The notes: a model not told the origin generated them from the letters alone. DNA of 64,000 bases from a bacterium (GCA_965216315.1 CBDCFN010000016.1:2277060-2341059); one strand, 5' to 3'. Numbered from the stretch's first letter, positions 2,015 through 48,586 are shown. A program made the numbers and translations.

Positions 2015-2794
2015 CTATTCGGGCATTTCCTCGACCGACCCATCCGTATTCATCATTGCCCCGTCTTTTGCGATACGCTCCATGAGTTCGTGTAGTGGAA
2101 CGGCATGACTCCGACGGGATTCAAACTTTCGCTCTTCATGCTTTTCATCCGTCGCCGCACCTTCTTCCGCGTCGTCATCCTCCCGCATTTCCTTTGCTTG
2201 CATCGGCATCAATCCAGCCAGATGACCGTAACTGGATTTATTTAAAGTTGTGAATGAAGTATCCGTCTCTGCTTCGGTATTCGGAAGCGCGACCCAACGA
2301 TCGTCGTCGAGAGCCAGACCAAGCTGTCCCCAGCTTAGCGGACGTTCGCTCGCCTCGACATGAAGCTGTTCACTCAAACCCTCTTCCGTCGTGAAAAGCA
2401 AAGGGATCTGCTCCTCGCTGCTGAGACTCAAGGAGAAATGATAATACTGCCCGGTCTCAACCCAAAAACTAAAACGACACTCGAAATCGACCGAACCGAT
2501 GACGACGGTTTGAGGACCCTGCTGCACCCAAATCTGGCGTCCGACGCAGTCGCCGTCGCCCGCGAATTCCGCTTCTGCCTGCCACTCGGACTGCGGCGGC
2601 ACCATGCCGATGATCTGGCGATAGGCGGACGGTGGATTACCGGCCTCGGTCCCGCCTTGAAACTGGCTTAGCGGCGGCTGCGTGCCGCAGGCAAAGCCGC
2701 CCAGGGCCTGAATGAACAGGCCCACCACGATGACGATGCATTTTCGTATGGTGTATTCTCCCGATAAGATATTTTGCTTAAGTGAGAACATCAC
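2015..2794 (-). CDS. lipoprotein with GGTEAGNP motif (third gene of the module at 2.0-4.6 kb)
   Basis: 259 aa ORF; N-terminus charged n-region then hydrophobic stretch and lipobox GGFAC; GGTEAGNPP motif soon after the Cys; acidic C-terminal region. Confidence 0.55.
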   Translation of the reverse strand: MMFSLKQNILSGEYTIRKCIVIVVGLFIQALGGFACGTQPPLSQFQGGTEAGNPPSAYRQIIGMVPPQSEWQAEAEFAGDGDCVGRQIWVQQGPQTVVIGSVDFECRFSFWVETGQYYHFSLSLSSEEQIPLLFTTEEGLSEQLHVEASERPLSWGQLGLALDDDRWVALPNTEAETDTSFTTLNKSSYGHLAGLMPMQAKEMREDDDAEEGAATDEKHEERKFESRRSHAVPLHELMERIAKDGAMMNTDGSVEEMPE

Positions 2795-2835
2795 CTAAGT
2801 TATCGAAAGAATAAAGGAAATGTTGTATACAGCGG

Positions 2836-2862
2836 AAAATATCTGTTGACTCAAGTCAACAG
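2836..2862 (-). promoter_or_regulatory. motif copy CTGTTGAC-TTGA-GTCAACAGATATTTT (read on minus strand), upstream of the 2015-2794 lipoprotein gene
   Basis: perfect 8 bp inverted repeat with 4 nt spacer plus AGATA extension; overlaps a 10 bp stem hairpin (2859-2883) that spans the stop codon of 2871-3695. Confidence 0.45.
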
Positions 2863-2870
2863 CTGCGCCT

Positions 2871-3695
2871 TTAGCGCAGCTGTTCGTGCAGATCTTCCGG
2901 ATCTTCGATCGGCTGCTGCGCGCCACCGATCTCATTCAATGATTTGATGACCTTAATAACGCTGTCTCTTTTGATCATCATTTTATCATCACCCTGTTCT
3001 TCTTCCTGCTCCGTAATACCGTAAGTTCCGGTGAACGGATTAGTCACCTCTTCGGCGCCTTGATTCTCCTCGGTGCCGCCAAAGCCTTCTGCAGGACCGG
3101 CCTGTTCCGTCTCGTCTTCACCTTCGCCCTCAGGATAATAGGGACCGCCGGTCCCTTCACTGGACCCGCCCGCCCGGGCGGCATAACTATCGCCTTGCTG
3201 GTAGAAGGAGATCTTGCCAATATCGTGGGTCACTCCGCGGCCTTCGAAACGGACATGAGGCGTATCATCATCGCCAAAGCCAACTCGAACCCGGGTGCCG
3301 TCAGGCATTTCAATATCAAACATATACTTGTCGCCAGACCGCAATCCAGGGATCGTAAAATCACAACTCGGCGTTACAGACGCACTTGTCTCTAAATGAG
3401 TGTGCACGTTCGTGGCAATAACCTTAACGCCCGCGCAGGCGTTCGGTAAATTCGGATCAAAACCGGGAATCTCCTGCATACGAGGAACGTTACCGGTCAC
3501 CGAAACGATGCCGGGGTTTTCGGCCTGCCCGGGATCTTGATCAGTCACCGAGGGACCGTTCCTGGGGTTACCCGCTTCGGTACCGCCTCGAAGTCCGGGA
3601 TTTCCTAAACCGCCACCACTACCCCCAGTATTGCAAGCAGTGACCGTTATCGCCACGACAGCCAAGGTTAAAACTAAATTAAATGCTTTCTTCAT
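2871..3695 (-). CDS. lipoprotein with GTEAGNP motif, coupled to upstream TIGR02147-like gene
   Basis: ORF 2871-3734; internal Met (rc ATG 3693-3695) gives lipoprotein signal MKKAFNLVLTLAVVAITVTAC; motifs GLGNPG and GGTEAGNP; 25 bp after stop of 3721-4569. Confidence 0.65.
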   Translation of the reverse strand: MKKAFNLVLTLAVVAITVTACNTGGSGGGLGNPGLRGGTEAGNPRNGPSVTDQDPGQAENPGIVSVTGNVPRMQEIPGFDPNLPNACAGVKVIATNVHTHLETSASVTPSCDFTIPGLRSGDKYMFDIEMPDGTRVRVGFGDDDTPHVRFEGRGVTHDIGKISFYQQGDSYAARAGGSSEGTGGPYYPEGEGEDETEQAGPAEGFGGTEENQGAEEVTNPFTGTYGITEQEEEQGDDKMMIKRDSVIKVIKSLNEIGGAQQPIEDPEDLHEQLR

Positions 3696-3720
3696 GATGT
3701 AACACCCTTTCGTACGCTTC

Positions 3721-4569
3721 TTACGCTCTTTCATGTTTTGTCACCGGCAGCATCTGGATACTGAGCAAGACAACATCATCTGGATTGTCATCGTCAGCAA
3801 CCAACTGGAGGATTTCGCGTCGAAACTCCTGAATGCGTTTTTTGATCTGCGGGACTCTTTCTTTAATAATTCCTAAAGTCAGAGCACTGACATCCCGTTC
3901 TTTTTGTTCCACCTCGGGAAGCTGCCCTTTTAATAAATCAAACAAACTCTGGTGATAATTTAAAAGCACGAGGGAATCGGCTTCGGCACCGCTCGTTACA
4001 AGCGGTGTCGCCTGTTTCCACTTATTGGTCACCGCATCACGCTCAATAAAATGAAGTCGCGCCAACAATTCGACGGACTTTTTTACTTGCGCGGGAGACA
4101 CTTCCGGCTGCAATCTTTTAGCCAACCACTCGATTGAACCGTCAAAATCCTTAGAAATGATCAACTCGCGCACAACCGGATGATACCAGGTTGAAAAATA
4201 CTCGTAACGATCCTGCGCAAGTGGCTCTAACTGACTGTAGCGTTGAGAACGAATCAACTTCTTATAGTAAGCGTTTTTTTCCGCGTGCGTTTTCGCCTGA
4301 TTAAAGAAGACGAGATTACGAAAGTGCTCGCGCTCCGGACGCTCCAGTTTGATTCCTTTAATGAATTTCTTGAGGCTTTCCTCAGTCAGGTTACGTTCGC
4401 CATCCATGACGAGTTTAAAAATATTGGAGGATTTAAAGCCGGCTTGCCGGGAAAAGACCCGATATGAAAACCCGTACCGCTCTTTGGCCGATTCATACCA
4501 ATCGCGCAAGAAGGCCCGGTAATCCATATAATCGAATACTGAGACGTTATTGTTGCCGTTGTTACCCAT
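3721..4569 (-). CDS. XRE-type HTH protein, TIGR02147/DUF4423-like paralog 1
   Basis: 282 aa; conserved N-terminal block DYRAFLRDWYESAKERYGFSYRVFSRQAGFKSSNIFKLVMDGERNLT (HTH_XRE-like, GxRNLS end); paralogous to 7373-8233, 10214-11062, 18151-18723, 43573-44427. Confidence 0.75.
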   Translation of the reverse strand: MGNNGNNNVSVFDYMDYRAFLRDWYESAKERYGFSYRVFSRQAGFKSSNIFKLVMDGERNLTEESLKKFIKGIKLERPEREHFRNLVFFNQAKTHAEKNAYYKKLIRSQRYSQLEPLAQDRYEYFSTWYHPVVRELIISKDFDGSIEWLAKRLQPEVSPAQVKKSVELLARLHFIERDAVTNKWKQATPLVTSGAEADSLVLLNYHQSLFDLLKGQLPEVEQKERDVSALTLGIIKERVPQIKKRIQEFRREILQLVADDDNPDDVVLLSIQMLPVTKHERA

Positions 4570-4751
4570 GTCACTTACCTATACGCTATTATACCCTGTA
4601 TACTGCCTGTTCTCTAGTTATCGTTCAGCGTCCGGCTTGAGTTGCCTCATTTTGACGAAATTTATCAATTTTTTGTATGCAGCAATCCCTATCTAACTAT
4701 CTGTTATTATTAATTTTTTAATTTCTATCTTATTTATGCCCTTTTTTTTGA

Positions 4752-4790
4752 GTCAACAGGCCCCCCTGTTGACCCAGGTCAACAGATAAT
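4752..4790 (+). promoter_or_regulatory. motif copy GTCAACAGG-cccc-CCTGTTGAC-ccag-GTCAACAGATAAT, upstream of 4873-5463
   Basis: three half-sites of the same 8-mer in alternating orientation about 80 bp upstream of the ORF. Confidence 0.45.
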
Positions 4791-4872
4791 CCTGACGAAA
4801 CGCAACGAAGACTCGAACGAATCCGATAAGTCTCAACGAAACGAACCGCAATTTCTGAGCATGGAGGCAACA

Positions 4873-5463
4873 ATGGGTGAACCAAGCACACTTCTTAATA
4901 TCTATAATAGCACCAAAGACTATATTTGGAACTTAGCCGCTGCGCAGCCCGTGGAAACGGATAGCGATGTCGCTTCCGGCGCTGATGACACGGCGCAAAC
5001 TCATGCGAATACGGATTTACTAGACAAGACCGTCACCCCCTGCAAAAAGGCAACTCCTTCGGTCGTTCGCCTTCATCAAGCCCCGATGCGCCCCGGCCAG
5101 CGGGACGATGGGGATACCGAATTCACCAATTTCATGAAACGACCCGGTTTCGGGCACGACGAACGCGTCGTCAGAGAGCTTGGTTATGCGTTTGACAAGT
5201 CGAAACTACCGGACACGATTACAGTCCGCATGCAAATATCGTCCAATGGAAGTATTGCGGTCGCCGAACTCCCGGAAGACTACAAACCACCGAAGGGCAT
5301 TTCACGGGAGGAAATGAACCACATCATTCATCGAGCGCTCGTGCCTTTTAGCGTGCCTAGCTATGCAGTGCCGGAAGCATCGCGAACGAATCCATGCGCG
5401 TGGATCACGCACACCATATCGCTGAATCCGACACCGGATCCGGCATCAGTACCTAACAGTTAA
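4873..5463 (+). CDS. hypothetical protein
   Basis: ORF 4861-5463; GGAGG SD at 4864-4868 favours the ATG at 4873 (MGEPST...); followed by an intrinsic terminator at 5498-5538; no recognisable domain. Confidence 0.5.
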   Translation: MGEPSTLLNIYNSTKDYIWNLAAAQPVETDSDVASGADDTAQTHANTDLLDKTVTPCKKATPSVVRLHQAPMRPGQRDDGDTEFTNFMKRPGFGHDERVVRELGYAFDKSKLPDTITVRMQISSNGSIAVAELPEDYKPPKGISREEMNHIIHRALVPFSVPSYAVPEASRTNPCAWITHTISLNPTPDPASVPNS

Positions 5464-5470
5464 AAACAGC

Positions 5471-5510
5471 TTACACATACGCACCCATGACACTCCGAAA
5501 AAGGTCATCC
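5471..5510 (+). repeat. direct repeat copy 1 (TTACACATACGCACCCATGACACTCC-G-AAAAAGGTCATCC)
   Basis: 40 bp, 39/40 identical to 5636-5675; runs into terminator hairpin. Confidence 0.7.
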
Positions 5511-5538
5511 TCTTCACCCCTTGAGGATGGCTTTTTTT
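5498..5538 (+). terminator. intrinsic terminator after 4873-5463
   Basis: CATCCTC...GAGGATG stem followed by TTTTTTT (5532-5538). Confidence 0.55.
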
Positions 5539-5548
5539 CGTTCACTCG

Positions 5549-5572
5549 TGTTGACTGACGTTAACAGATAAA
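5549..5572 (+). promoter_or_regulatory. motif copy TGTTGAC-TGAC-GTTAACAGATAA
   Basis: same architecture as 4767-4790 and 5711-5733; sits between terminator 1 and a candidate short transcript. Confidence 0.4.
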
Positions 5573-5635
5573 CTTTTTGCAACGCAACAGTGTGTCGGTA
5601 GGTACCGATAACTAATATACAACAAGTTATTCAAC

Positions 5636-5675
5636 TTACACATACGCACCCATGACACTCCAAAAAGGTCATCCC
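5636..5675 (+). repeat. direct repeat copy 2
   Basis: see 5471-5510. Confidence 0.7.
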
Positions 5676-5700
5676 TCTCCCCGGGGGGATGACCTTTTTA
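5662..5700 (+). terminator. intrinsic terminator, bidirectional architecture
   Basis: AAAAA-GGTCATCCC-tctccccggg-GGGATGACC-TTTTTACTTTT; perfect 9 bp GC-rich stem. Confidence 0.6.
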
Positions 5701-5710
5701 CTTTTAAAGG

Positions 5711-5733
5711 TGTTAACTTACGTCAACAGATAA
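5711..5733 (+). promoter_or_regulatory. motif copy TGTTAAC-TTAC-GTCAACAGATAAAG, upstream of the LysM gene
   Basis: about 100 bp upstream of ATG 5832. Confidence 0.4.
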
Positions 5734-5831
5734 AGCCTTCGTTAACGAATATTAAACAACATCGTTTGCGAATAACCGATAATACTACAGGTAGGCTAAC
5801 TGATAACTCGTTTCAGAAAGGTTGGGATAAC

Positions 5832-6179
5832 ATGTCGTATCAAATTCATACCGTCCGTCCGGGAGACACGTTGGCAAGCATTGCGCGGCACTACGGCGTC
5901 ACCATGCAGCAACTCCGGAAGCTGAATGTTCATCTCACGCAATCGAGTGGCTCGATTCCTCGTACGAGTGCAGGAAGTAAGATTTACGTCGGTGACGAAG
6001 TCCGTATTAAAGAGCTCCTTGAGTGCGGCCGCAACGTCGGGCCTTTTCAGTTGGGTTGTCGTTATGCGTCGAGTGACACATTAAAACTGGAGTTTGGTAT
6101 CAAGGGCGACGTAAGCACACAACCCCTTAATTCCTCAATCATGGTTGGCGCCAGAATCACTTTTTCCGGGGGCAACTAA
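5832..6179 (+). CDS. LysM domain protein
   Basis: MSYQIHTVRPGDTLASIARHYGVTMQQLRKLN is a canonical LysM motif; start taken at the internal ATG 5832 because the upstream part of ORF 5652-6179 crosses a terminator hairpin and a promoter-like motif. Confidence 0.6.
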   Translation: MSYQIHTVRPGDTLASIARHYGVTMQQLRKLNVHLTQSSGSIPRTSAGSKIYVGDEVRIKELLECGRNVGPFQLGCRYASSDTLKLEFGIKGDVSTQPLNSSIMVGARITFSGGN

Positions 6180-6188
6180 ATAGCTGAA

Positions 6189-7376
6189 CTAGGGTTGCGC
6201 CGTAAACGAAGTCGTTGCGGCCTTGGTCTTACCGCCCGTCCCGCAGTCGATTTCATCGACCTTGACCTCGTATTCGGTCCCGGCGGCAAAGGGGTCAACG
6301 CCGTGCTCGCACGCGATCTCATCCGCCCCCAGCTGATGGTTGGTGCAATCGACGTCGATCGCGAGTCCTTTGGGCTGAATAATCAGCGCGCTGGGAAAAT
6401 CGATCAGGCCAAGATGATATTTGCAGCCCAAGCGAACAATCACCTGTTCCGAGAGGCCTACGCCCGTCTGACCGTTGAAGGGATAAATTCTCAAGACCGG
6501 AACCATCCCCCCCAAATCTTCCTCACGACAAGGTGAGCCGGGATCATTGTCATCGATAAAACCATTGAGGTCACAATCCCGCTCCATTTGATCAAGTACG
6601 CCGTCGTTATCATCGTCCGTGTCGATCGCATCCGAGTCCCCATCCTCGTCGCGGTCCGTATAGATCTCCGGATTGTGTTCCGGAATCGCGTCAAGACCCT
6701 CGATCTGCACCCGACCTAAGTCAACGGGTTTCTCGGCCGGGAGCCCGACGTAAAACTCATTTTGGCGGATAAAGGCGCGCTGCTTACTGAGATGTTCCAT
6801 CTTCACGACCAGGCGCGCGACGAGGTCACCGGTCTTTTTTCGGAACTCCAGCATATAAGCGCGCTTGGTCGGCACAGCGAGCTTAAAAGAGCAATCCGAT
6901 TCAATTCTCGTAGTGAGCTCTTGTCGTGCAGAGTTGATCGCGGTCACGGTCGCGGCCGGACAGACCTTGACTACCGCAATTTTAGTCGCCTGCTCGGCCC
7001 ATTCCGTCCGGATGTTTACCAGACTCATCTGCATGAGCGGCCTGATATCCTTATACGGCAATTCGCGCACCGGGCTCTCGATCAGCTGCCGTTCCTCTTC
7101 CACGGGCTGCAGCTGACCGATGATCAGGCGTAGCGGAGCCGGATCCTGATCGTAAGGTGTTCCCGGCCGTGGCCCTGGTCCCGGATCAGTCGGCGTCGCT
7201 TCCGGATTCCCGAAATCCGTTCCCCCGAACTCTGGGTTCCCGAAATCCGTTCCGCTGATCGTTTGCTCGGTATCGACAATGTCCGGTGGTGCGGTATCCG
7301 CTCCCTGCGGCTGGACGCACGCGGCAATAAAAAAGACGAGCGCAATAGTACTGAGCAACCGGCTCCAGCAGGTCAT
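6189..7376 (-). CDS. lipoprotein with tandem GTDFGNPE motifs and thrombospondin-type-3-like Asp-rich calcium-binding repeats
   Basis: 395 aa; lipobox FIAAC; GTDFGNPEFGGTDFGNPE; DRDEDGDSDAIDTDDDNDGVLD and DCDLNGFIDDND; start overlaps stop of 7373-8233 by 4 bp; paralogous to 11507-12652. Confidence 0.7.
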   Translation of the reverse strand: MTCWSRLLSTIALVFFIAACVQPQGADTAPPDIVDTEQTISGTDFGNPEFGGTDFGNPEATPTDPGPGPRPGTPYDQDPAPLRLIIGQLQPVEEERQLIESPVRELPYKDIRPLMQMSLVNIRTEWAEQATKIAVVKVCPAATVTAINSARQELTTRIESDCSFKLAVPTKRAYMLEFRKKTGDLVARLVVKMEHLSKQRAFIRQNEFYVGLPAEKPVDLGRVQIEGLDAIPEHNPEIYTDRDEDGDSDAIDTDDDNDGVLDQMERDCDLNGFIDDNDPGSPCREEDLGGMVPVLRIYPFNGQTGVGLSEQVIVRLGCKYHLGLIDFPSALIIQPKGLAIDVDCTNHQLGADEIACEHGVDPFAAGTEYEVKVDEIDCGTGGKTKAATTSFTAQP

Positions 7377-8233
7377 GATCCACCTGCCTCGTCCGTCGGC
7401 TCTTCGACCATCGGGAATAAATAGATATTCAACTGCAAGACCTCCTCCGTCTCCGTATCATCGGCGACCAGCTTGAGGATGTCCTGTCGAAATTTTTCGA
7501 TTTTCTTCTTTATCTGGTGCAGGCGGGGCTTGGTTACTCCCAAGGTCAACGCCCCCATATAGCGCCTCGGTGCCGGAACGGCCCCAAGCAGGTGGGGGAG
7601 AAGCTTCATCATAGTCTTATGATAATTGAAAAGCTCAACGGATTCAATAGCGGTCCCGGGGGCGAGCACGGAAGAGCTCTGTTCCCAGCGTCCTGACGGG
7701 CTGCGATGGATCAATTCGAGCTTTTCCAAGAGCTCGAGCGAGGCTTCGACCTGCTCCAATTTGATCCGTTTTCCGAGCCGCGTCATCAACCATTCCGGGG
7801 TTCCATCATAGTCCTTGGCCGTGATGAGCTCGCGAATGACCGCATGGTACCAAGCCGAACAATATTCATGCTGATGGGCTCTAATCGGTTGTCTTTGTTG
7901 GTATTTTTTCGAACGCAGCAACAAGTTGTAGTAACGATCCTCTTCTTCATGGGTCTTGGCCTGGTTATACGCGACCAGATTGCTAAAAAAATCGGCGTCC
8001 TGGGCCGCCAGCTTCAAGGCCTTAACCGTCTTCGGCAAGGTATCCGCAGTTAAGTTCCGTTTTCCCTGAATGACCAACATGATGTAGTTGGAGGACTTGA
8101 ACCCGGCGCGTTCCGCAAATCTTCGATAGGACATGGAGGCCCGGGTCTTTTTCTTCGCCTCAAACCAGTCGCGCAAATAGGTACGATAATCGTTGTAATC
8201 GTAGAGATTTATGTCCTCTGCCGGCTCCGACAC
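7373..8233 (-). CDS. XRE-type HTH protein, TIGR02147/DUF4423-like paralog 2
   Basis: 286 aa; DYRTYLRDWFEAKKKTRASMSYRRFAERAGFKSSNYIMLVIQGKRNLT; shared central CSAWYHAVIRELI block. Confidence 0.75.
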   Translation of the reverse strand: MSEPAEDINLYDYNDYRTYLRDWFEAKKKTRASMSYRRFAERAGFKSSNYIMLVIQGKRNLTADTLPKTVKALKLAAQDADFFSNLVAYNQAKTHEEEDRYYNLLLRSKKYQQRQPIRAHQHEYCSAWYHAVIRELITAKDYDGTPEWLMTRLGKRIKLEQVEASLELLEKLELIHRSPSGRWEQSSSVLAPGTAIESVELFNYHKTMMKLLPHLLGAVPAPRRYMGALTLGVTKPRLHQIKKKIEKFRQDILKLVADDTETEEVLQLNIYLFPMVEEPTDEAGGS

Positions 8234-8298
8234 CTACCAAAAATACCTGTAATTACTTGTAGGCGCAACTAAATGGTCTCTTTGGGAGTTCTGGACCG

Positions 8299-10185
8299 CT
8301 AACCCTCACCATTCGGGTCTTGGATGACCATGCGTGCCGCCGCCGTCCAATAGTCGACGTCAATCTCCGCATCGACGAGGAGGCGTGCCCCGGCCAAGGT
8401 CGTAATCTCCGGATGTTCGTGGAAGCGAATCGGGATCAACGGGATAAAGTAAGGTGGGTAACGCTCCAATACATAATCAAGCAGCTCCATTTTATCATCG
8501 TCGCTAAGCCACTCGAGTCGCGCTAACCCCAAAAACCGAAAGGCCTGTCGCAAGTTGAGCGGCTTCGGATAGAGCGACACATGGGCCGTTTGATAGATAT
8601 TCCATAATTCGTGGAGGTGGCTCTCGATCTGACTGCGCTGTTTCTGCGGCGAGGTCACGCCGCCACCTACGAAGATGATGTGCTGTCCCGGATAACGCAA
8701 AAACCGTTTGGCAAATTCCGCAAATTTCTCGACATACTTACCCGAGATATAAACAGACTCATCAAAAATAAACACTGTCGGTTGCACGATATCATCGATC
8801 TCGCGGATCAAGCCGATGGCCCGATCACCTCCCCCCATCGCCTGGGCATCAAGCGAAACGACTCGGTGCCCCCTTTCTGATAAGACCCGTTCCAAATTCC
8901 AGATGAGAACCTCACTTTTTCCGGAGCCCGAAAGGCCGGTCGAAGAGACGAGCTGGACACCATCCTCAATCGCGCTAACGACCTGATCGACTTCGGAAGC
9001 ACGATAGTCACGAAGCGACTTATCCGAAGGATCTCGATCGATCGACCGCAGCAGCCGACTATCCTGAGTACGAAAGCCCACCACATGATAAGGGGATCGC
9101 GGTTGAGTCCGCTGCGATAAGTCAGGAATCGGCGGGGTCTGACGCGGGCGCGGAAATAGGTGGGGTCGATAAATAATCAAGGCATTGCGCACCGTCTCCG
9201 GCAAATTGGTAAAGGGCATCCCGAGCACACCCCGTACACGACGGAGAATGCGGCCGCCGCGTCCCGCAATAACCGATTCACGAAAACGGCTGATAGTCTC
9301 ATCATCCTTTAAATCCAATTGCATCGTGTAGCTGGAGCGATCGAGCAAGAAGGCCAGCCCCGGACGGCGCGCCACGTCCACGACCTGATCAACCGTAAAC
9401 TGATAACCATGACGCTCAATAATCTCGGACACAACTCGCAGCCAGCCGAGTTTAATCCGGGGGAGCACAATAAACCCAGCGAGTTCGCGTGGACTCCTCA
9501 GTTCATTGTATTTATCTTGAGCAAAGGCCTCGCCGTAATCGCCCGCAAATTCCTTCAGTTTATTGCCGATGGCATTGCGAGTTCCCTGATCGATCGTAAC
9601 CCCATCAAAGAAGCGGTAGGCATAACGGCCGACCTCACGCGCTTCGATCTGGAAGTCACTCACCATCCCACTCTTGCGCGCAAAATGAAGTAGATTTTGA
9701 TGGATCTGCAGAGCCAGTCGGGACTTGGATCCCGTAATTTCTATGGATGTATCACTCCTTCGCGTCAGCGATCCGTCCGCATTCCGTTGCCAGACGTACG
9801 TACAACTTCCATTGATACTGTCACCATTCCCTTTAAACTCGGCGTGCGTCTCAAAAGTATTTTCGTTGTGTCTCGCCACACGCAGGCAATCAAGCTTCAA
9901 GGAAATGTTCATTCCTTCAAAGGCATTAATCAGATCCTGGATGGTGACCCGCTCCCCAAAGAATTGCGCAAACGCTTGATGCAAAGCGGGATGCCGCGAC
10001 GCATCCTCAATCGCATAGTCGACATCGTCGATCGATACGGAGCTGAGCCGGTGCGTTTGAATAGGAAACGGCCCCGAAGGAGGATTTAAAATATCGAAAG
10101 AATCCCCGGAGGCCAGAACAGTCGTCATCAAGCCTATTGAGGCTAAACCGTTCGTATAGGAGGACACCACAGGCAGCATACTCAC
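8299..10185 (-). CDS. large protein of unknown function with C-terminal P-loop kinase-like domain (APS-kinase/small-molecule-kinase-like Walker A)
   Basis: 628 aa; track start is GTG at 10183-10185, an ATG lies two codons in (10177-10179); hydrophobic N-terminal stretch; Walker A STGLSGSGKSEV, then VSLDAQAMGGG, Walker B-like VFIFDE; lies between two TIGR02147-like genes with 28 and 65 bp gaps. Confidence 0.65.
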   Translation of the reverse strand: MSMLPVVSSYTNGLASIGLMTTVLASGDSFDILNPPSGPFPIQTHRLSSVSIDDVDYAIEDASRHPALHQAFAQFFGERVTIQDLINAFEGMNISLKLDCLRVARHNENTFETHAEFKGNGDSINGSCTYVWQRNADGSLTRRSDTSIEITGSKSRLALQIHQNLLHFARKSGMVSDFQIEAREVGRYAYRFFDGVTIDQGTRNAIGNKLKEFAGDYGEAFAQDKYNELRSPRELAGFIVLPRIKLGWLRVVSEIIERHGYQFTVDQVVDVARRPGLAFLLDRSSYTMQLDLKDDETISRFRESVIAGRGGRILRRVRGVLGMPFTNLPETVRNALIIYRPHLFPRPRQTPPIPDLSQRTQPRSPYHVVGFRTQDSRLLRSIDRDPSDKSLRDYRASEVDQVVSAIEDGVQLVSSTGLSGSGKSEVLIWNLERVLSERGHRVVSLDAQAMGGGDRAIGLIREIDDIVQPTVFIFDESVYISGKYVEKFAEFAKRFLRYPGQHIIFVGGGVTSPQKQRSQIESHLHELWNIYQTAHVSLYPKPLNLRQAFRFLGLARLEWLSDDDKMELLDYVLERYPPYFIPLIPIRFHEHPEITTLAGARLLVDAEIDVDYWTAAARMVIQDPNGEG

Positions 10186-10213
10186 TTCATCGCCGCTCTG
10201 CGTAAGAAGTTGC

Positions 10214-11062
10214 TTAAGCCTTGGGGCTCGTTAACGGAAACATGTGAATATTGACCTGAACGACCTCTTCCGGGGTTTCATCTGCGGAGACGAATTTGAG
10301 GATGTCCTGACGAAATTTTTGGACTTTTTTCTTGAGTTGCTCCAGCCTTTCTTTACGCACCCCGAGGGTCAATGCACTGATATCGCGTCGTTCTCCCGGT
10401 ACGGTATCAAGAACCTCCTTGGTCAACTCGAGCATATTATAATGATATGCAAATAATTCGATCGAGCGAACATCCGCCCCCGTCGAAACTAAACTATGGC
10501 TCTGTTTCCACCGACCTTTTTTATTGCGCTTGGCGAAGCCCAAGGTTTCTAATAATTCGAGAGAATGCGTCACATCGGCAACAGATACTTTCGGAAAAAT
10601 CCGTTCCGCAATCCATTCAGCAGTCCCGTCATATTCTTTTGCCGTAATGAGTTCGCGAATGACGGCATGGTACCAACGAGAGCAATATTCATATTGGTGC
10701 GTGCGTATCGGTTCTAACTGGTTATACTTTCTCGACCGCAGCATGCGTTGATAATAACGCTCTTTGTCCCGCTGATGTTCCTCCTGCGTATAATGAACCA
10801 GGTTTTCAAAAAATTCCGTCTCCTGCTTGTTCAGCTTGAGCGCCTTGGCCACTTTAGGAATGCTTTCTTGGCTCAAATTTCGCTTGCCCTGCAACACCAT
10901 CATAATGAAATTCCAGGACTTGAGGCCGGCACGCTCCGAGAACTTTCGATACGACATGCCCGCCCGGGTCTGTTTAGCAGCTTTGTACCAATCGTTTAGA
11001 AAATCACGATAATCTAGATAACTAAACGGGCTGACCTGATTGGCAATGCGTGACTGTGACAT
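10214..11062 (-). CDS. XRE-type HTH protein, TIGR02147/DUF4423-like paralog 3
   Basis: 282 aa; DYRDFLNDWYKAAKQTRAGMSYRKFSERAGLKSWNFIMMVLQGKRNLS; closest in sequence to paralog 5. Confidence 0.75.
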   Translation of the reverse strand: MSQSRIANQVSPFSYLDYRDFLNDWYKAAKQTRAGMSYRKFSERAGLKSWNFIMMVLQGKRNLSQESIPKVAKALKLNKQETEFFENLVHYTQEEHQRDKERYYQRMLRSRKYNQLEPIRTHQYEYCSRWYHAVIRELITAKEYDGTAEWIAERIFPKVSVADVTHSLELLETLGFAKRNKKGRWKQSHSLVSTGADVRSIELFAYHYNMLELTKEVLDTVPGERRDISALTLGVRKERLEQLKKKVQKFRQDILKFVSADETPEEVVQVNIHMFPLTSPKA

Positions 11063-11440
11063 AGGGGTTTCAATGATCTTATAACAACCCCCTCATCAAG
11101 TACACAGAAATTGGCATGATGCTTTTAAAGAAAAGAGGCTAATAATACCTCGCTTTTTAGCAGCGAGTTTTCTGTACACGCTCAATGCACAGAGCCTTGT
11201 TGCAGAGGACACCGGCAAGGCGGCACAGCAGGCAATGACGGGGCGACGACCGGAGAGACGCCGCCCCGCCCAGGGTTCAGCTAGCGGTATTGACCGATTC
11301 CAAGGAAACGGACGCACCCGACAACCACCAGCAGAGCCAGAGTGCCTACAGAGAGAAGAACTGATGACTCGCCCGAACAGTTAGTTATCGGATATATGAG
11401 GTCCGCGGATGCGGATTATCAGCAGAATATTCTATAATCA

Positions 11441-11456
11441 GTGTACTTTAGTACAC
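11441..11456. promoter_or_regulatory. palindromic operator-like site GTGTAC-ttta-GTACAC
   Basis: perfect 6 bp half-sites; preceded by TATAAT on the + strand; in the 445 bp region upstream of paralog 3. Confidence 0.45.
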
Positions 11457-11506: not shown

Positions 11507-12652
11507 CTATAAAGCCGTCTTAAAAGTCCAACTCGTCTGCGGAATACTTTCCCCGCCGTCACAGTCGGTCTCCAGCAGCGTCGCCGTGTACGTCATGTTG
11601 TGCACAAAGGGAAGCGCGTGCGTACACTCAATAACCGTATTGCCAACAAAGAGAACCGACACGCACGCAATCGTGGCAGCCACTTCATCCTCGAGTTTGA
11701 TCTTGCCCGAATCAAACTGGCCGACATCAACGGGGCAACTGACCTTGACCCGTATCTTTTGCAACTCACCTATATCCGTTTCGCCACTAAAAGGAGACGC
11801 TGCGAGCACTCGCGGTCCGGAAGAGGATCCTCCTGCGGAACACGCGGAATCTTCGTCGCCATCATCGGGAAAGCCATCGAGGTCACAGTCCGGCTCTTCC
11901 ACATCAGGAATTCCATCATTATCGTCGTCAGGATCGTCTTTGTCATTGAGGCCATCTCCGTCGCGGTCACTCCACGCGCGCGGATCATTGGCCGCCGTTG
12001 CAATCTTACCTGTGCGCGCAATAGCCCCCAAATCGAGCGGGGTGTCCGAAGCCGGGATGTTGAAAGTATGAAGCGGAACGCCTCCGACTACTGAGACGAC
12101 TAAACGCGATTGGATCGAGCCTGCCGACCAAAAACTCATATGATAAAGTTGATTGGAGGGGACCTCAATACGGAAAGAACAATCGTCTTGAATATCGGAC
12201 TCATGAACCTCTCCATCGGAAGCGGTTAACTTGACGTGGTCGACCCCGCAAATCAGCTTCGGCGGGGTCGCGAAGGAACCGGGACCAGGCGCGGGCGGTT
12301 CCGGCACGGTACTTCCTCCCGTCGTAAACCCCGGGGCCAAACCTACCTGGTCGCCCGCGAATCCAGGATTGTCTCCCGGTGCCGGCTCCTCGTTCCCTGA
12401 AGGGGCCTTTTCTGCAATGAGTTTCAACTGACCCGTCACGAGAGCGATGGGATTGCCGAATTCGGAACCCCCTTGAGGATTACCAAATTCCGAACCTCCC
12501 TGTTCCTGCGGATTACCGAATTCGGAAGCGCCGGTCTTTTCGACCTCAGCCCCAGTGGGGACGTTATCGGGAGAATCAAGACCGCCTCCCGGTACACAGG
12601 ATGTCAGTAGGAATAACAGGGCCGTAATCGAAACAATTGAACGCGCGTGCAT
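11507..12652 (-). CDS. lipoprotein with three GSEFGNP motifs and thrombospondin-type-3-like Asp-rich repeats
   Basis: 381 aa; lipobox LLTSC; GASEFGNPQEQGGSEFGNPQGGSEFGNP; DRDGDGLNDKDDPDDDNDGIPD and DCDLDGFPDDGDED; paralog of 6189-7376. Confidence 0.7.
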   Translation of the reverse strand: MHARSIVSITALLFLLTSCVPGGGLDSPDNVPTGAEVEKTGASEFGNPQEQGGSEFGNPQGGSEFGNPIALVTGQLKLIAEKAPSGNEEPAPGDNPGFAGDQVGLAPGFTTGGSTVPEPPAPGPGSFATPPKLICGVDHVKLTASDGEVHESDIQDDCSFRIEVPSNQLYHMSFWSAGSIQSRLVVSVVGGVPLHTFNIPASDTPLDLGAIARTGKIATAANDPRAWSDRDGDGLNDKDDPDDDNDGIPDVEEPDCDLDGFPDDGDEDSACSAGGSSSGPRVLAASPFSGETDIGELQKIRVKVSCPVDVGQFDSGKIKLEDEVAATIACVSVLFVGNTVIECTHALPFVHNMTYTATLLETDCDGGESIPQTSWTFKTAL

Positions 12653-12701: not shown

Positions 12702-14180
12702 TTATTGTCTCAACAGCGCACGGCGCCCAAACAACACGCCTAATGCTGCCAAGGCCATCACGAAGAGGCCGAGTGTATTTGCCGCGTGAGGCGTCGCGTT
12801 CAGGCTACAACCACCCGATGTCGCGAGTGATTCACTTTCTTCACCCGTTCCATCACCGACGATAACTTCTTCATTTTCCGCCGGATTCTCTTCCGCATCC
12901 TCTCCCTTATCCGCGTCTATGTTTATAAGTTCGCCTTCACATTGATCATCACAACCGTCGCCATTTTCTTCATTCCCGTCGTCGCAGTCCTCTCCCTCAT
13001 CCACAATACCATTGCCACAGAGACCTTTTTCGAAGGCCCCGACATCCGAACTGACCCCAAGAGGCCTCGGAAAACCGCGCTGGTCTTCAGCCAGCTTGAC
13101 AATGATGGCGGCATCAATAGCGAGGCTGCCGGCTCCAAGCGCATGTGTGCGGGTGTCTCCGCCGTTAAAAGCCAAGGCTTGCAACTTAAGATCGGCACTG
13201 TCGACTCCCGATTGATCCGTCGTTTCCGTAAGGTTACAGGTTCCGTCGACATCAATGTTGCCACCACCCGATGTAATCGTCCCGAGACCACCGGACGTAT
13301 CGCAATTCGCGTCAACGCCGCCGGATCCGTCTACCTGTGCCAACAAACTATTATACAAATTCACTTCGCCATCACCGGCAACGAGATGAGCCGCTAGCAG
13401 GTCAGCACGATTATGATAGAAAGTGACATGCCAGAGATCCACATCGTCCGCGAGACTCACCAGCCCGCCACCGGTCGGCGCCGTATTGTTACTGATCGTG
13501 ACATTCACCAACTTGATGTTGCTAGAGCCCGTTCCAACGGCAACACCGCCACCAAAATCGGCAGCGCTATTGTCGCTGACCAAACAGCGCTCCATATCAA
13601 GCGTTCCGGTTCCTATCGCCAGACCGCCGCCAGCGTCGGCTTCATTGCCGATAAGCTCGACATCACGCAAAATAATATCACCGGATCCATCCGAATAGAT
13701 TCCGGCACCGGGTTCCGTGGGGCTCGATCCACTCTGAATCGAGAGTCGCTCAAAAGTTACGTTCGCATTATTTAAAACGTGAAACACTCGACTGTGTTGA
13801 CCACCACTGATAATCGGCAGAGGCAATTTCTTAAGCGGGATAGCACCCGAACTCAAACTCGGGTCCCCTTGGATGATGACATCATCCGTGATATCAAAAT
13901 CGCGCAGGCCATTCGCATCATCATCGACAAGCATCGTCTCATCGATTCCATAAATGCCGTTGGCAATGATAATCGTATCTTCGCCGGGATTGCTATTCGC
14001 TAGATTAATCGCCGCACGCAAGGTGCATGACGTTCCGCCACCGAGCATGAAGAAACAGATACCACCATCTTCCGTTCGATCCACGGTATAAGTCTCCGCG
14101 TGGACTTGAGCCGCCGCCAACATCGCGACAACCACCGCGCTAATAATTGAGAATTTTTTAATCGTTTCCAGTATACCCAT
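12702..14180 (-). CDS. secreted beta-helix protein with CSLREA-type motif, one Myxococcus-type cysteine-rich repeat and MYXO-CTERM-like C-terminal sorting signal
   Basis: 492 aa; signal peptide; CTLRAAINLAN motif; CGNGIVDEGEDCDDGNEENGDGCDDQC; C-terminus SGGCS...TLGLFVMALAALGVLFGRRALLRQ (Cys motif, hydrophobic helix, basic tail). Confidence 0.75.
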   Translation of the reverse strand: MGILETIKKFSIISAVVVAMLAAAQVHAETYTVDRTEDGGICFFMLGGGTSCTLRAAINLANSNPGEDTIIIANGIYGIDETMLVDDDANGLRDFDITDDVIIQGDPSLSSGAIPLKKLPLPIISGGQHSRVFHVLNNANVTFERLSIQSGSSPTEPGAGIYSDGSGDIILRDVELIGNEADAGGGLAIGTGTLDMERCLVSDNSAADFGGGVAVGTGSSNIKLVNVTISNNTAPTGGGLVSLADDVDLWHVTFYHNRADLLAAHLVAGDGEVNLYNSLLAQVDGSGGVDANCDTSGGLGTITSGGGNIDVDGTCNLTETTDQSGVDSADLKLQALAFNGGDTRTHALGAGSLAIDAAIIVKLAEDQRGFPRPLGVSSDVGAFEKGLCGNGIVDEGEDCDDGNEENGDGCDDQCEGELINIDADKGEDAEENPAENEEVIVGDGTGEESESLATSGGCSLNATPHAANTLGLFVMALAALGVLFGRRALLRQ

Positions 14181-14275: not shown

Positions 14276-14291
14276 GTGTACATGAGTACAC
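14276..14291. promoter_or_regulatory. palindromic operator-like site GTGTAC-atga-GTACAC
   Basis: 96 bp upstream of the 12702-14180 start, in an AT-rich promoter region. Confidence 0.45.
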
Positions 14292-18150: not shown

Positions 18151-18723
18151 TCAAACTGGTCTGTCTAATTTTTTATATGTTAGCTTTTTTTCGTCTGGAA
18201 TCACGGGGATGAGTTCGATCGACATCGTCATCATCTCTTCAGGAACGACATCATCGTCGACTAAATTGAGAAGTTTACTCCGAAACTCTCGGATTATTTT
18301 TTTGAGTTGAGGCAAGTTATCTCTAATGATTCCAAAAGTAATCTCACTTAAATCGCGTTTACCCTGATCGAGGCTGAGTGTTTGAAGGCGATGCACATTA
18401 CGAATAGCCATCAGTTCTAGATAGTGTTCCTTAATTTCGTCAGGGCTCTCAGCCTGATTTAAGAAGACGAGATGCCGAAAATACTCCGCTTCGTCGTCTT
18501 CCAAGCGCAAACCTCGAATAAATTTTCTTAAACTTTTTAGTGTTAGGTTGCGGTCGCCATCCATAACGAGCTTGAGGATATTAGAAGAACCAAACCCGGC
18601 ATGTTGTGAAAAGATACGGAGAGAAAATCCGTAGGTCAGGCGCTTGGCACTCTCATACCAGTCCTTGAGAAAAGTCCTATAATCGAGATAATCATAGACA
18701 CAGATGTCGGATACAATATTCAT
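18151..18723 (-). CDS. XRE-type HTH protein, TIGR02147/DUF4423-like paralog 4, shortened (about 190 aa versus about 283)
   Basis: YDYLDYRTFLKDWYESAK...SLRIFSQHAGFGSSNILKLVMDGDRNLT conserved; central block present in the other four copies is missing; start taken at rc ATG 18721-18723; no lipoprotein partner downstream. Confidence 0.6.
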   Translation of the reverse strand: MNIVSDICVYDYLDYRTFLKDWYESAKRLTYGFSLRIFSQHAGFGSSNILKLVMDGDRNLTLKSLRKFIRGLRLEDDEAEYFRHLVFLNQAESPDEIKEHYLELMAIRNVHRLQTLSLDQGKRDLSEITFGIIRDNLPQLKKIIREFRSKLLNLVDDDVVPEEMMTMSIELIPVIPDEKKLTYKKLDRPV

Positions 18724-18936
18724 GCTAAACCTGTATCCGCTTTGATGCCCACTTTCCTTATCGGTCAAAGCCAAATTTTGTTTTCAACTATTTTTAATTT
18801 TTTGAAAAAACTCTTAATTTCAGCGACTTATAATGACTACGAGGCAGGCGGAACGGACCGCAGCCTCTCGGTCCGCCCGCCAGCAGTGCTATCGCACCGG
18901 TCATACCCTCGCGATAGGTGGAGTCATTTTCATCGA

Positions 18937-25637: not shown

Positions 25638-25671
25638 CCCCTCCTTGGTAAGGAGGGGAAGTCTCTGCATC

Positions 25672-26067
25672 TTGTTGGTTGCGTTGTGTTTGACCTTTAC
25701 CGCATGTCCCAAGCGGCCAACAACGCGTCCTCCCCGACCTGAGGTCGAACATCGCCGCCCCGAGGTCATTCGCCCCAACGGACAAGACTCGCCGGAACAA
25801 AAGGCCGCCGATCAACTGATCGTCGCGGGGATTGCCGCGCTCAAAGACGATGACGCGGAAAAAGCTGCAACTCATTTCGAGCAGGCCGTTCGCATCGCTT
25901 CCTCTTACGGTCCCGCCTACTATTGGCTGGCACGTGCCAAGTATGACCTCGACCAACTCACGCGCGCCTGGGATTTGCTCGACCGCGCGGAATTATTGAT
26001 CGGCCATGAGAGCCGCTGGCTCGAGCGCATCGACCAGCTCCGCGCCGCAATTTCCGACGCACGGTAG
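25672..26067 (+). CDS. putative small lipoprotein with TPR-like helical region
   Basis: AAGGAGGGG SD at 25650-25658; probable TTG start 25672 giving LLVALCLTFTAC lipobox; the upstream part of ORF 25519-26067 overlaps the PBP 3' end and is probably not translated. Confidence 0.4.
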   Translation: MLVALCLTFTACPKRPTTRPPRPEVEHRRPEVIRPNGQDSPEQKAADQLIVAGIAALKDDDAEKAATHFEQAVRIASSYGPAYYWLARAKYDLDQLTRAWDLLDRAELLIGHESRWLERIDQLRAAISDAR

Positions 26068-30443: not shown

Positions 30444-30517
30444 TCGGGGAGACAGGATTTGAACCTGCGACCCCTGCGTCCCGAACGCAGTGCTCTACCA
30501 GGCTGAGCTACTCCCCG
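30444..30517 (-). tRNA. tRNA-Pro (anticodon CGG)
   Basis: cloverleaf readable by eye: acceptor CGGGGAG/CTCCCCG, D-arm GCTC..GAGC, anticodon stem CTGCG/CGCAG with loop TTCGGGA, T-arm GGTTCAAATCC; CCA not encoded. Confidence 0.9.
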
Positions 30518-30725: not shown

Positions 30726-31700
30726 TTAGGACCCTGACATCACGACACCGCGAGGCGGGGTAAAGGTCAAGTGCCCGCGTCCCGCCTGGGTAAAGGCCAT
30801 CGAGCGCAAGATTTCATGAGGGGTCGAGGTTGCGTCATCCACGGTCGCCAAGAGAACGTAGCCACAACCGGCGTGATACGCCGACCCCTTTTTATAAGGG
30901 ACGGGATGGTATTCGGTGCCCTCAATGACGTACGGATCCCCTCCCTCGCCGGCTTGGGGAATGCCTGCCTGACCCACGGGGGCTATCATGACATTGTCGA
31001 AGGTCCGCGTATAGGTCACACCCTCCGCCGTGCGTCCCGTCACTCCCAGCTGTCCTGCCACCGGGTTAAAAGGGCCCTGGAGAGGAAGACGAATCGAATC
31101 ACTGGAAAGATGGGACGTCCCGCCAAAACGAATGTCGCTGGCCAGATAAACCTGAGCCCCGTCGCTACCTTCCACCGTCTTACCGGCGATCGAGACGAGG
31201 AGCCCCTCGAGCTCCGTCGATTGACTCAAGGCCGTCTGAATATCACGGACCAGTGCCTGCTCCTGGCTGTCACTAAGATCCAATCCCGAGGCGAAGACCT
31301 GCACGCGGTCCAGAGACGCCATGGTCAGCCCCTCGGTATTCGCAACCGTCGCATCGAGATAAATCATCAAGGATCCGGTATCGAGACGGGTGTAGCGATC
31401 GCCCAAGGCTCCGGTCAGGGTCTCTCCCACGATTCGATTGACCTCCGGATTGGAGAGGCGATGGCCGGGGTCCGACATGGGCGGCGTCGACGCTGAAGAG
31501 GCCGGGAGGGTCCGTGCCATCACGGATGTACCGCCGTTGGCACCTGAAGACCCCGCCATCGCTTGAAACGAACGGCTTACCTCGGCCTCCGTCATAGTTG
31601 GCTCGGCCGCTACGGCGGTATCACTGGATACAAATTGTGCTGTATTGATATCGGCCATGGTGCGAACCATGGCGCTTCCTTGAATAATTGTTTCAGACAT
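30726..31700 (-). CDS. hypothetical protein
   Basis: start at MSETIIQ with GGAGG SD; 5' UTR and upstream operator nearly identical to those of 42867-43409; no recognised domain. Confidence 0.5.
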   Translation of the reverse strand: MSETIIQGSAMVRTMADINTAQFVSSDTAVAAEPTMTEAEVSRSFQAMAGSSGANGGTSVMARTLPASSASTPPMSDPGHRLSNPEVNRIVGETLTGALGDRYTRLDTGSLMIYLDATVANTEGLTMASLDRVQVFASGLDLSDSQEQALVRDIQTALSQSTELEGLLVSIAGKTVEGSDGAQVYLASDIRFGGTSHLSSDSIRLPLQGPFNPVAGQLGVTGRTAEGVTYTRTFDNVMIAPVGQAGIPQAGEGGDPYVIEGTEYHPVPYKKGSAYHAGCGYVLLATVDDATSTPHEILRSMAFTQAGRGHLTFTPPRGVVMSGS

Positions 31701-31769
31701 TACACACCTCCATGCCTTATTTATTTTCGTCACAATACTCAGGGCAGTTGTGAATGGCGCCGAGATTCA

Positions 31770-31786
31770 GTGTACTCTCAGTACAC
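31770..31786. promoter_or_regulatory. palindromic operator-like site GTGTACT-ctc-AGTACAC
   Basis: 70 bp upstream of 30726-31700 start; the extended 19 bp match CGTGTACTCT-N-AGTACACG is shared with 43478-43496. Confidence 0.5.
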
Positions 31787-31950
31787 GATATTATATGTTA
31801 TAACTATTTGTTTTTATTTATTATTCTATCTATTCTATTTTTTATGTGATTATATATGAAGGAGTTAAAAGTACACGAGGCGAGAACGCAGCAACTTAGA
31901 ATTAATGCCGTCGATAAGACCTCGACTCAAGTGAGGGAGGCTTGTGTGGT

Positions 31951-42218: not shown

Positions 42219-42305
42219 CGGAGAGGGTGGGATTCGAACCCACGGTGCAGTTTCCCGCACACTTCCTTAGCAGGGAAGCGCCTTCAGCCACTCGGCCACC
42301 TCTCC
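42219..42305 (-). tRNA. tRNA-Ser (anticodon GCU)
   Basis: acceptor GGAGAGG/CCTCTCC, anticodon stem CTTCC/GGAAG with loop CTGCTAA, long variable arm, T-arm GGTTCGAATCC; 87 nt. Confidence 0.9.
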
Positions 42306-42552: not shown

Positions 42553-42637
42553 CGGAGGGGGTGGGATTCGAACCCACGGTACCTTGCGGCACGGCGGTTT
42601 TCAAGACCGCTGCCTTCAACCACTCGGCCACCCCTCC
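42553..42637 (-). tRNA. tRNA-Ser (anticodon UGA)
   Basis: acceptor GGAGGGG/CCCCTCC, anticodon stem GCGGT/ACCGC with loop CTTGAAA, long variable arm, T-arm GGTTCGAATCC; 85 nt. Confidence 0.9.
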
Positions 42638-43478: not shown

Positions 43479-43495
43479 GTGTACTCTAAGTACAC
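43479..43495. promoter_or_regulatory. palindromic operator-like site GTGTACT-cta-AGTACAC
   Basis: 70 bp upstream of 42867-43409 and 78 bp upstream of paralog 5. Confidence 0.5.
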
Positions 43496-48515: not shown

Positions 48516-48586
48516 GATGAACTCCTTAGGCATGAAATATAACAAAGTAGGGGCGACCAGACCGGCCGCCCCTACTGAATTGTTAT

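Follow-up and report, generated by a model that had tools for sequence, protein, structure and literature searches.

Why should genes for one family of putative DNA-binding regulators recur five times within a short stretch of a bacterial genome, among genes for lipoproteins that share a peptide of seven residues, and what might that peptide do? The question is raised by a window of 64 kb (64,000 nucleotides of GCA_965216315.1 CBDCFN010000016.1:2277060-2341059), which encodes five TIGR02147/DUF4423 paralogs and five lipoproteins with this peptide tag (Table 1). We find that the regulator–lipoprotein pair, the tag, and a palindromic candidate operator make up a real, non-random module that crosses phyla, and it is this conservation, rather than the local duplication, that is the notable point of the locus. 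The window copies are new members of a known family, while the module itself (i.e. pair, tag, and operator code) appears undescribed; a literature search revealed nothing on TIGR02147, PF14394, the pairing, the tag, or the operator, apart from one table entry to which we return below.

The five paralogous regulator genes proposed by a first-pass annotation of the window are present as open reading frames (ORFs) at all five positions, based on an ORF listing and translation. All five exceed the curated cut-off of TIGR02147 (NCBIfam, 50 bits), and the four full-length copies, at 122–138 bits, also lie above the gathering threshold of DUF4423 (Pfam PF14394, 30 bits), which upholds the proposed family assignment except for copy 4 (ORF 18151-18774), whose 27.6 bits fall below the DUF4423 threshold. 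This copy is internally shortened and partnerless, as had been claimed: about 100 central residues, including the WYH block and the winged helix, are gone in frame, and it has no lipoprotein partner. By contrast, the view that this much local duplication is unusual does not hold. TIGR02147 is typed as "paralog" by NCBIfam and at least 4 loci occur in the single metagenome-assembled genome (MAG) OFTM19, so genomes with multiple paralogs are normal for the family and the window duplication is not unusual by itself. The family is also very large: a library clustered at 50% identity contains 14,103 of its clusters at E ≤ 1e-10.

All five tagged ORFs carry a signal peptide and a lipobox Cys, and are predicted from sequence to be lipoproteins. 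Their signal peptides end in VTAC, IAAC, LTSC, LSAC, and GFAC, the last being atypical for the lipobox pattern [LVI][ASTVI][GAS]C. In a six-frame translation of the full 64 kb, the strict motif G[TS][ED][FA][GE]NP has 7 matches, all of which fall inside the five lipoprotein ORFs, with 1–3 tag copies per protein; each of the five thus bears the motif as first described. The motif is absent from three other lipoprotein-like ORFs of the window (25645-26067, 47478-48545, and 57645-58838). Other parts of the first-pass annotation need correction. Specifically, the lipoproteins were said to be otherwise divergent, yet all five share a beta-rich domain of ~90 amino acids (aa) with two invariant Cys, CxF, a Tyr, and a P-LDLG segment. 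Likewise, a tagged lipoprotein comes directly after only three of the regulators rather than four, and the junctions comprise two 4-nucleotide (nt) overlaps of stop and start (regulators 2 and 5) and one 25-nt gap (regulator 1), rather than three overlaps. Regulator 3 is instead followed by a 628-aa non-lipoprotein ORF (8299-10185), and lipoprotein 4 lies 444 nt upstream of it. Apart from a borderline Big_5 match, the window lipoproteins have no family in Pfam or NCBIfam.

Is the pairing peculiar to this window? A scan with the regulator alignment, using one genome per GTDB species, gave 160 confirmed loci, of which 80 were kept and 78 have sufficient downstream sequence. These loci come from MAGs labelled Deltaproteobacteria, including UBA10199, and from Myxococcota, Fibrobacter/Fibrobacterota, Chitinispirillaceae, and Oligoflexia; the locus closest to a window regulator is from UBA10199, with 71% identity. 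In 67 of the 78 loci, the regulator gene is directly followed on its own strand by a gene whose product has a signal peptide, a Cys, and the tag, and in 43 of these 67 pairs the partner start codon overlaps the regulator stop by 4 nt. In two further loci it is the second lipoprotein downstream that bears the tag, and two more have degenerate tags. Among the 67 partners, the Cys is found at position 13–38 in 64 and is preceded by A, G, or S in 59, while the tag [GS][TSI][ED]x[GD]NP lies 0–19 residues past the Cys, most commonly after a single residue (e.g. C-x-GTETGNP). No third conserved neighbor, such as a sigma factor, transporter, or protease, is found around the pair, and an ORF resembling an extracytoplasmic function sigma factor is present in only 5 loci.

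The tag is specific. In a six-frame translation of the 80 loci (1.63 million residues), G[TSIV][ED]xGNP has 52 matches in partner genes vs 2 elsewhere, one of the latter being a partner on a short contig, and none of 44 other lipoprotein-like ORFs in the locus flanks carries it; the motif is thus not driven by composition. When 5.8 billion proteins were searched with a profile made only of signal peptide, Cys, and tag, two came back, each encoded directly behind a PF14394 gene; this is informative, although two are too few for statistics. Within the tag, G, N, and P are invariant, and an acidic residue occupies position 3, three positions ahead of the N-P pair; a related locus (L007) has four tag copies. 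At the synonymous third positions of the tag codons all four bases are used, which indicates that selection acts on the peptide and not on a DNA or RNA element. No Pfam or NCBIfam model covers the tag in 10 diverse partners, and no Rfam family matches the region. The tag is strictly linked to this regulator family, and this is the observation that no simple model explains.

The remainder of the partner varies widely, both in length (96–1010 aa) and in domain content, which includes unrelated domains such as CBM_4_9 (in Fibrobacter intestinalis), a PF09826 beta-propeller, Big_5, a weak DUF4382, or no known domain. In a large protein collection the regulator has 84 close relatives vs one for lipoprotein 3, whose homolog search of 5.8 billion proteins returned only itself and one relative at 61%. 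Given this variable cargo and the absence of a third conserved gene, the tag behaves as a portable N-terminal label on cargo that evolves fast or is swapped. The AlphaFold2 (AF2) model of lipoprotein 3 is poor, with a predicted local distance difference test score (pLDDT) of 41.7 overall, and was for this reason left out of fold searches; its tag-bearing tether (residues 20–139) has pLDDT 21–33 and may be flexible.

Side observations on these cargo proteins include Asp-rich DxDxDGxxD repeats at residues ~240–275 of lipoproteins 3 and 4, which by eye resemble thrombospondin type-3 calcium-binding repeats and are followed by a Cys-containing, Ig-like C-terminal domain similar to Big_5. In another genome, one regulator is flanked by paralogous PF09826 beta-propeller lipoproteins (locus L011, 183-2234 and 3085-5100); the upstream one is untagged (CNGGNGGGGGGDETP), the downstream one is tagged (CAGGTDVGNP), and a GTATTC palindrome lies ~150 nt ahead of the untagged gene.

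What, then, is the regulator? It is modelled as an XRE/C-protein-like helix-turn-helix (HTH) followed by a helical winged-helix domain (DUF4423). In the AF2 model of regulator 3 (40 sequences, pLDDT 86), an N-terminal helical domain is followed by more helices, a helix-plus-beta-hairpin unit at residues 161–187, and two long C-terminal helices. The N-terminal domain adopts the five-helix XRE fold and resembles restriction-modification (R-M) controller proteins in Foldseek (probability 0.97–1.0, 20–28% identity). The XRE HTH of the first-pass annotation therefore finds support in structure, while it has none from Pfam, where no model of the HTH_XRE type (HTH_3, HTH_31, or similar) matches at E ≤ 0.01 and only a faint CYNS_N match is seen. 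The PADLOC "Control_protein" HTH model matches regulator 3 weakly (E 1.9e-4). Foldseek with the whole model found no full-length analogue, nor did the regulator profile have any significant match among PDB sequences. The regulator lacks both a signal peptide and a membrane segment, its DUF4423 region contains invariant W, R, H, R, and T residues, and neither Pfam matches nor structural neighbors include a tetratricopeptide repeat (TPR) domain. As an aside, two database proteins, P0206 (596 aa) and P0215 (597 aa), each contain two TIGR02147-like stretches and may be tandem regulator fusions.

In the other genomes, a perfect GTNNNC-N3-7-GNNNAC palindrome lies within the 250 nt ahead of 27 of the 79 regulators, a rate about 20-fold that of the remaining locus sequence. 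The half-sites are almost solely GTATTC, GTATAC, GTTTAC, GTGTAC, and GTGTTC, with a spacing of mostly 5 and a positional peak at -80 to -100. The resulting consensus, GTNTNC-N5-GNANAC, precedes the regulator genes by ~70–110 nt, and the identity of its third base follows that of one residue in the recognition helix. Among the 43 loci obtained when one mismatch is allowed, where the residues before and at the conserved Asn read [SA]P-N, the half-site is GTAT[AT]C (28 of 29 loci); S[ST]-N or TS-N goes with GT[GT]T[AT]C or a near variant (7 of 7); and in Fibrobacter, SSHAH goes with G[GT]TTAC-N4-GTAAAC (4 of 4). Such a correlation, read from sequence, is what direct readout by the N-terminal HTH would predict.

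The window fits the same rule with two operator dialects that match the recognition helices, i.e. KSSNIF in regulator 1 vs S[SWT]N[FY]IM in regulators 2, 3, and 5. Regulator 1 (KSSNIF) adjoins GTTGAC sites, and regulators 3 (KSWN) and 5 (KSTN) adjoin GTGTAC sites; the 71% ortholog (L001) also has GTTGAC-N4-GTCAAC sites. Class A palindromes (TGTTGAC-N4-GTCAACA) occur 4 times in the window vs 0.15 expected, and class B palindromes (GTGTACT-N2/3-AGTACAC) 4 times vs 0.00 expected. Single GTGTACT half-sites are also in excess (11 vs 2.3 expected), including one 37 nt ahead of the regulator 3 start (11099-11105) and another just inside regulator 5. Class A sites stand ahead of lipoprotein 2, the divergent ORF 4861-5463, and a LysM-domain gene. 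Class B sites precede the regulator 5 operon, the gene of a beta-helix protein followed by lipoprotein 4, and the region running into regulator 3 and on through the 628-aa ORF, regulator 2, and lipoprotein 3. From these positions, every tagged lipoprotein of the window lies behind a candidate operator of this family. By inspection, -10-like hexamers (CATAAT, TATTAT, and GATAAT) lie 0–5 nt past window palindromes, which suggests that the operator covers the spacer/-35 region and, by extension, that binding would repress; a promoter-like TTGACT-18-TAAGAT is present at 4756-4727 on the minus strand.

Table 1. Positions of regulators, tagged lipoproteins, tags, and candidate operator palindromes in the 64-kb window.
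Feature	Position	Strand	Details
Regulator 1	3721-4569	-	Recognition helix KSSNIFKLV; TIGR02147 278.2 bits, DUF4423 122 bits
Regulator 2	7373-8233	-	Recognition helix KSSNYIMLV; TIGR02147 260.3 bits
Regulator 3	10214-11062	-	Recognition helix KSWNFIMMV; TIGR02147 278.3 bits
Regulator 4	18151-18723	-	In-frame deletion; TIGR02147 124.7 bits
Regulator 5	43573-44427	+	Recognition helix KSTNFIMLV; TIGR02147 256.4 bits
Lipoprotein 1	2871-3695	-	Signal peptide, lipobox VTAC; 25 nt after regulator 1
Tag of lipoprotein 1	3564-3584		GTEAGNP
Tag of lipoprotein 1	3597-3617		GGGLGNP, degenerate
Lipoprotein 2	2015-2794	-	In tandem after lipoprotein 1
Tag of lipoprotein 2	2633-2653		GTEAGNP
Lipoprotein 3	6189-7376	-	4-nt overlap with regulator 2 stop
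Tags of lipoprotein 3	7233-7253, 7203-7223		GTDFGNP
Lipoprotein 4	11507-12652	-	Upstream of regulator 3; weak, borderline Big_5 match at C-terminus
Tag of lipoprotein 4	~12509-12529		ASEFGNP
Tags of lipoprotein 4	12476-12496, 12449-12469		GSEFGNP
Lipoprotein 5	44424-45065	+	4-nt overlap with regulator 5 stop
Tag of lipoprotein 5	44583-44603		GTEFENP
Class A palindrome	2844-2861		50 nt upstream of lipoprotein 2
Class A palindrome	4767-4784		Third half-site at 4752-4758; divergent region between regulator 1 and ORF 4861-5463
Class A palindrome	5549-5566		1 mismatch; inside first copy of 165-bp tandem duplication
Class A palindrome	5711-5728		1 mismatch; ~104 nt upstream of likely LysM-domain gene start (5832)
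Class B palindrome	11441-11456		GTGTACT-N2-AGTACAC; between lipoprotein 4 and regulator 3
Class B palindrome	14276-14291		~96 nt upstream of beta-helix "choice-of-anchor Q" gene 12702-14180
Class B palindrome	31770-31786		AT-rich intergenic, between ORFs 30726-31733 (-) and 31942-32853 (+)
Class B palindrome	43479-43495		77 nt upstream of regulator 5; CATAAT after 3 nt

On balance, we consider it probable that these units are small autoregulated operons for tagged lipoproteins, with the tag serving as a handling signal. The first gene would encode a cytoplasmic TIGR02147 regulator, with its N-terminal XRE/controller-protein-like HTH and its helical/winged-helix DUF4423 region. A dimer of this protein would bind a 6-N(4-5)-6 palindrome, GTNTNC...GNANAC, at or over its own promoter, ~70–110 nt before the start codon, and would set the level of both itself and the translationally coupled next gene, probably by repression rather than activation. 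The second gene would encode a lipoprotein that is exported and lipidated, the cargo domain of which varies freely between loci, and the G-[TSI]-[ED]-x-G-N-P tag would sit on a flexible tether just past the lipidated Cys. There it may direct the handling of the exported protein (i.e. surface sorting, docking, or release from the anchor) and be read by a conserved partner. In the window, the two dialects would operate near regulator 1 (class A) and near regulators 3 and 5 (class B), and the same operators also precede other genes for envelope or secreted proteins, namely those of lipoprotein 2, the beta-helix protein, and the LysM protein.

Several parts of this proposal have precedents. R-M controller proteins (C.BclI, C.AhdI, and C.Esp1396I) and small XRE autoregulators have the same N-terminal HTH fold and a short palindromic operator at their own promoter, as we propose for the regulators here. 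Unlike these, the regulators have ~280 aa with an extra helical/winged-helix region, no R-M genes are nearby, and the regulated gene would be a lipoprotein. In Bacteroidota, surface exposure is directed by the lipoprotein export signal (LES), a short acidic motif that immediately follows the lipidated Cys. The tag resembles it in position and logic only, being short, with an acidic residue, within a few residues of Cys+1, and independent of cargo; it differs in its sequence (G-T-E-x-G-N-P), in lying up to ~40 residues from the Cys, in being repeatable, and in occurring only on lipoproteins linked to one regulator family and not on all surface lipoproteins. By the family cut-offs the window regulators are TIGR02147/DUF4423 members, save the deleted copy on DUF4423, and they share the multi-paralog genomes typical of the family. 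The library names, "TIGR02147 family protein" and "domain of unknown function", do not convey the coupled tagged lipoprotein, the operator, or the recognition code.

A number of observations weigh against autoregulated operons with a handling signal. A perfect palindrome is found upstream of only about one-third of regulators, and of about one-half when one mismatch is allowed, and the covariation between helix and operator is confounded and inflated by phylogeny and sequence relatedness. In the window, the class A site ahead of lipoprotein 2 also fits a terminator-like hairpin after lipoprotein 1 (a terminator scan flags 2843-2862), and regulator 1 has its nearest class A site 200 nt away from the ATG, at a place that would suit the divergent ORF 4861-5463 better. 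Six Polyangiaceae loci (L040, L058, L060, L069, L076, and L079; GC content 0.68–0.72) have the regulator with no tagged lipoprotein downstream and are for this reason regarded as an orphan subfamily; its helix reads [ST]SNF[LV]KLV, with RNLG, and its operators GTGTTC/GTGTAC. A general sorting signal would be expected also on lipoproteins not linked to the regulator, and none is seen, which the handling-signal proposal leaves unexplained. The tag is alike in paralogs with diverging operators and DNA specificities, and the poor lipoprotein model allows no structural statement about it. The single mention of DUF4423 in the literature is a proteomics table entry, Bd3700, upregulated in Bdellovibrio growth in prey.

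The best placed of the alternatives, which we nevertheless hold to be rather unlikely, is that the tag is the ligand of the regulator. DUF4423 would bind G-T-E-x-G-N-P on the unexported precursor, translated from the same mRNA, or on a peptide or lipopeptide set free in the envelope and then re-imported, in a feedback or signalling loop. Several of the observations above agree with such a role: the regulator is the only conserved neighbor of the tag, the tag is essentially restricted to genes behind these regulators, translational coupling is frequent, and tandem tag copies (1–4) recall multi-copy peptide precursors. The invariant W, R, H, R, and T residues of DUF4423 could also form a pocket for a motif with an acidic residue. 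By analogy, the system might then be a Gram-negative counterpart of XRE-type regulators that sense lipoprotein-derived peptides, an equally unlikely prospect. In Gram-positive bacteria, XRE regulators of the RNPP/PrgX type sense peptides derived from lipoprotein precursors, and the likeness lies in the genetic link between a regulator of XRE type and a short peptide segment conserved in a precursor that is secreted or lipidated. The present case differs in that the host is diderm, no TPR sensor is present, the conserved segment belongs to the mature lipoprotein rather than to the signal peptide, and no Opp-like importer is linked. A cytoplasmic regulator with no signal peptide or membrane segment is also hard to reconcile with a tag in the exported mature part of the lipoprotein, as is the lack of a TPR or other known peptide-binding fold in the model and of a conserved importer or protease gene nearby. 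Moreover, the tag is unchanged between paralogs with diverging operators, so that it could not convey paralog-specific signals.

It is also unlikely, in our judgment, that the tag is a release site, at which a cut at or next to Asn-Pro, by Asn cyclisation or a dedicated protease, would free the cargo and make the lipoprotein pathway a secretion route. Asn cyclisation has precedents in the NPTH site of FlhB/YscU and in the N42-P43 site of reovirus mu1. The invariant N and P with an acidic residue three positions earlier, the repeated copies, the place of the tag on a low-confidence tether that is probably flexible and joins the anchor to the first folded domain, and cargo that looks extracellular or binding (CBM_4_9, beta-propeller, Big_5, and Asp-rich repeats) are all what a release site might show. 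On the other hand, the motif lies in predicted disorder with no catalytic context like that of known autocleaving folds, and the strict regulator linkage would be left unexplained. A combination of both ideas, in which regulators and tagged lipoproteins form an unrecognised multi-phylum envelope system whose tag is cut at or near Asn-Pro, so that the cargo is released and a small lipopeptide or peptide is left or set free, and in which this product or the unexported precursor is sensed by DUF4423 of the co-encoded regulator, strikes us as similarly doubtful.

More improbable still is that the tag has no separate function and is a remnant of the ancestry of one lipoprotein family that travels with the regulator, the pairing being an inherited operon. 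The five window lipoproteins are indeed homologous beyond the tag, and paralog expansion is typical of TIGR02147. Against this, seven residues are nearly fixed across phyla while synonymous sites are randomised and flanks and whole cargo domains are replaced, and in the beta-propeller locus the paralog upstream of the regulator is untagged and the downstream one tagged. Finally, G, P, E, D, and T are abundant in the linkers, and the notion that the motif reflects chance or composition of Gly/Pro/Glu-rich linkers, or a translated DNA element such as an operator or RNA motif, is ruled out for practical purposes by the match distribution (7 of 7 in the five window ORFs, and the excess in partner genes), the free third codon positions, and the lack of an Rfam match.

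Candidates from known systems were also rejected. A toxin–antitoxin pair (HigA-like) does not fit a partner that is a signal-peptide lipoprotein with no match to a toxin family, and the units differ from HigA antitoxins and from DdrO/ImmR XRE repressors in having no toxin or protease partner, the partner being instead a signal-peptide protein with variable, binding-type domains. An RNPP/Rgg peptide sensor was set aside because no TPR-like domain was found in Pfam matches or structural neighbors, and a PADLOC defence system because the weak Control_protein match concerns regulator 3 only, with none for the partners.

Further features were noted in the window. In a tandem duplication of ~165 bp (5467-5572 and 5632-5734), both copies have a leader of 35 nt that is conserved, a terminator-like hairpin (AAAAAGGTCATCC...GGATGACCTTTTT), and one class A palindrome each. 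As annotated, the LysM ORF (5652-6179) overlaps the second copy at its 5' end, and its true start is more likely the ATG at 5832. In the 65-nt gap directly upstream of regulator 2, an imperfect palindrome (TACCTGTAATTACTTGTA, 8244-8261) has an architecture unlike that of class A or class B. The 628-aa ORF between regulators 3 and 2 (minus strand) has a P-loop-like GSGKSE segment, matches no significant Pfam, NCBIfam, or PADLOC family, and is absent from the conserved module of other genomes. The beta-helix protein (12702-14180, minus strand) is secreted and right-handed, with a choice-of-anchor Q domain, a myxo-type Cys-rich acidic repeat, and a CSLREA-like N-terminus; its ortholog in L001 (3779-5227) also has operator-like palindromes upstream, in the local dialect, as in the window. 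The sole Rfam matches in the window are three tRNA genes, at 30444-30517, 42219-42305, and 42553-42637 (-).

For the TIGR02147/DUF4423 family, which is very large and almost absent from the literature, these findings amount to a description that is specific and open to test: a candidate DNA operator that follows a recognition rule of one residue to one base, a downstream partner, and a new cargo-independent lipoprotein tag of seven residues. Even on a conservative reading, thousands of "hypothetical" lipoproteins could be annotated as one regulated class. If the tag were cut and sensed, it would amount to a lipoprotein-derived feedback or signalling circuit in diderm bacteria. More generally, a tag shown to serve in sorting, release, or signalling would be a new entry among the few linear signals that decide the fate of bacterial lipoproteins, and would account for the paralog expansions seen in Fibrobacter, Myxococcota, predatory bacteria, and uncultured lineages.

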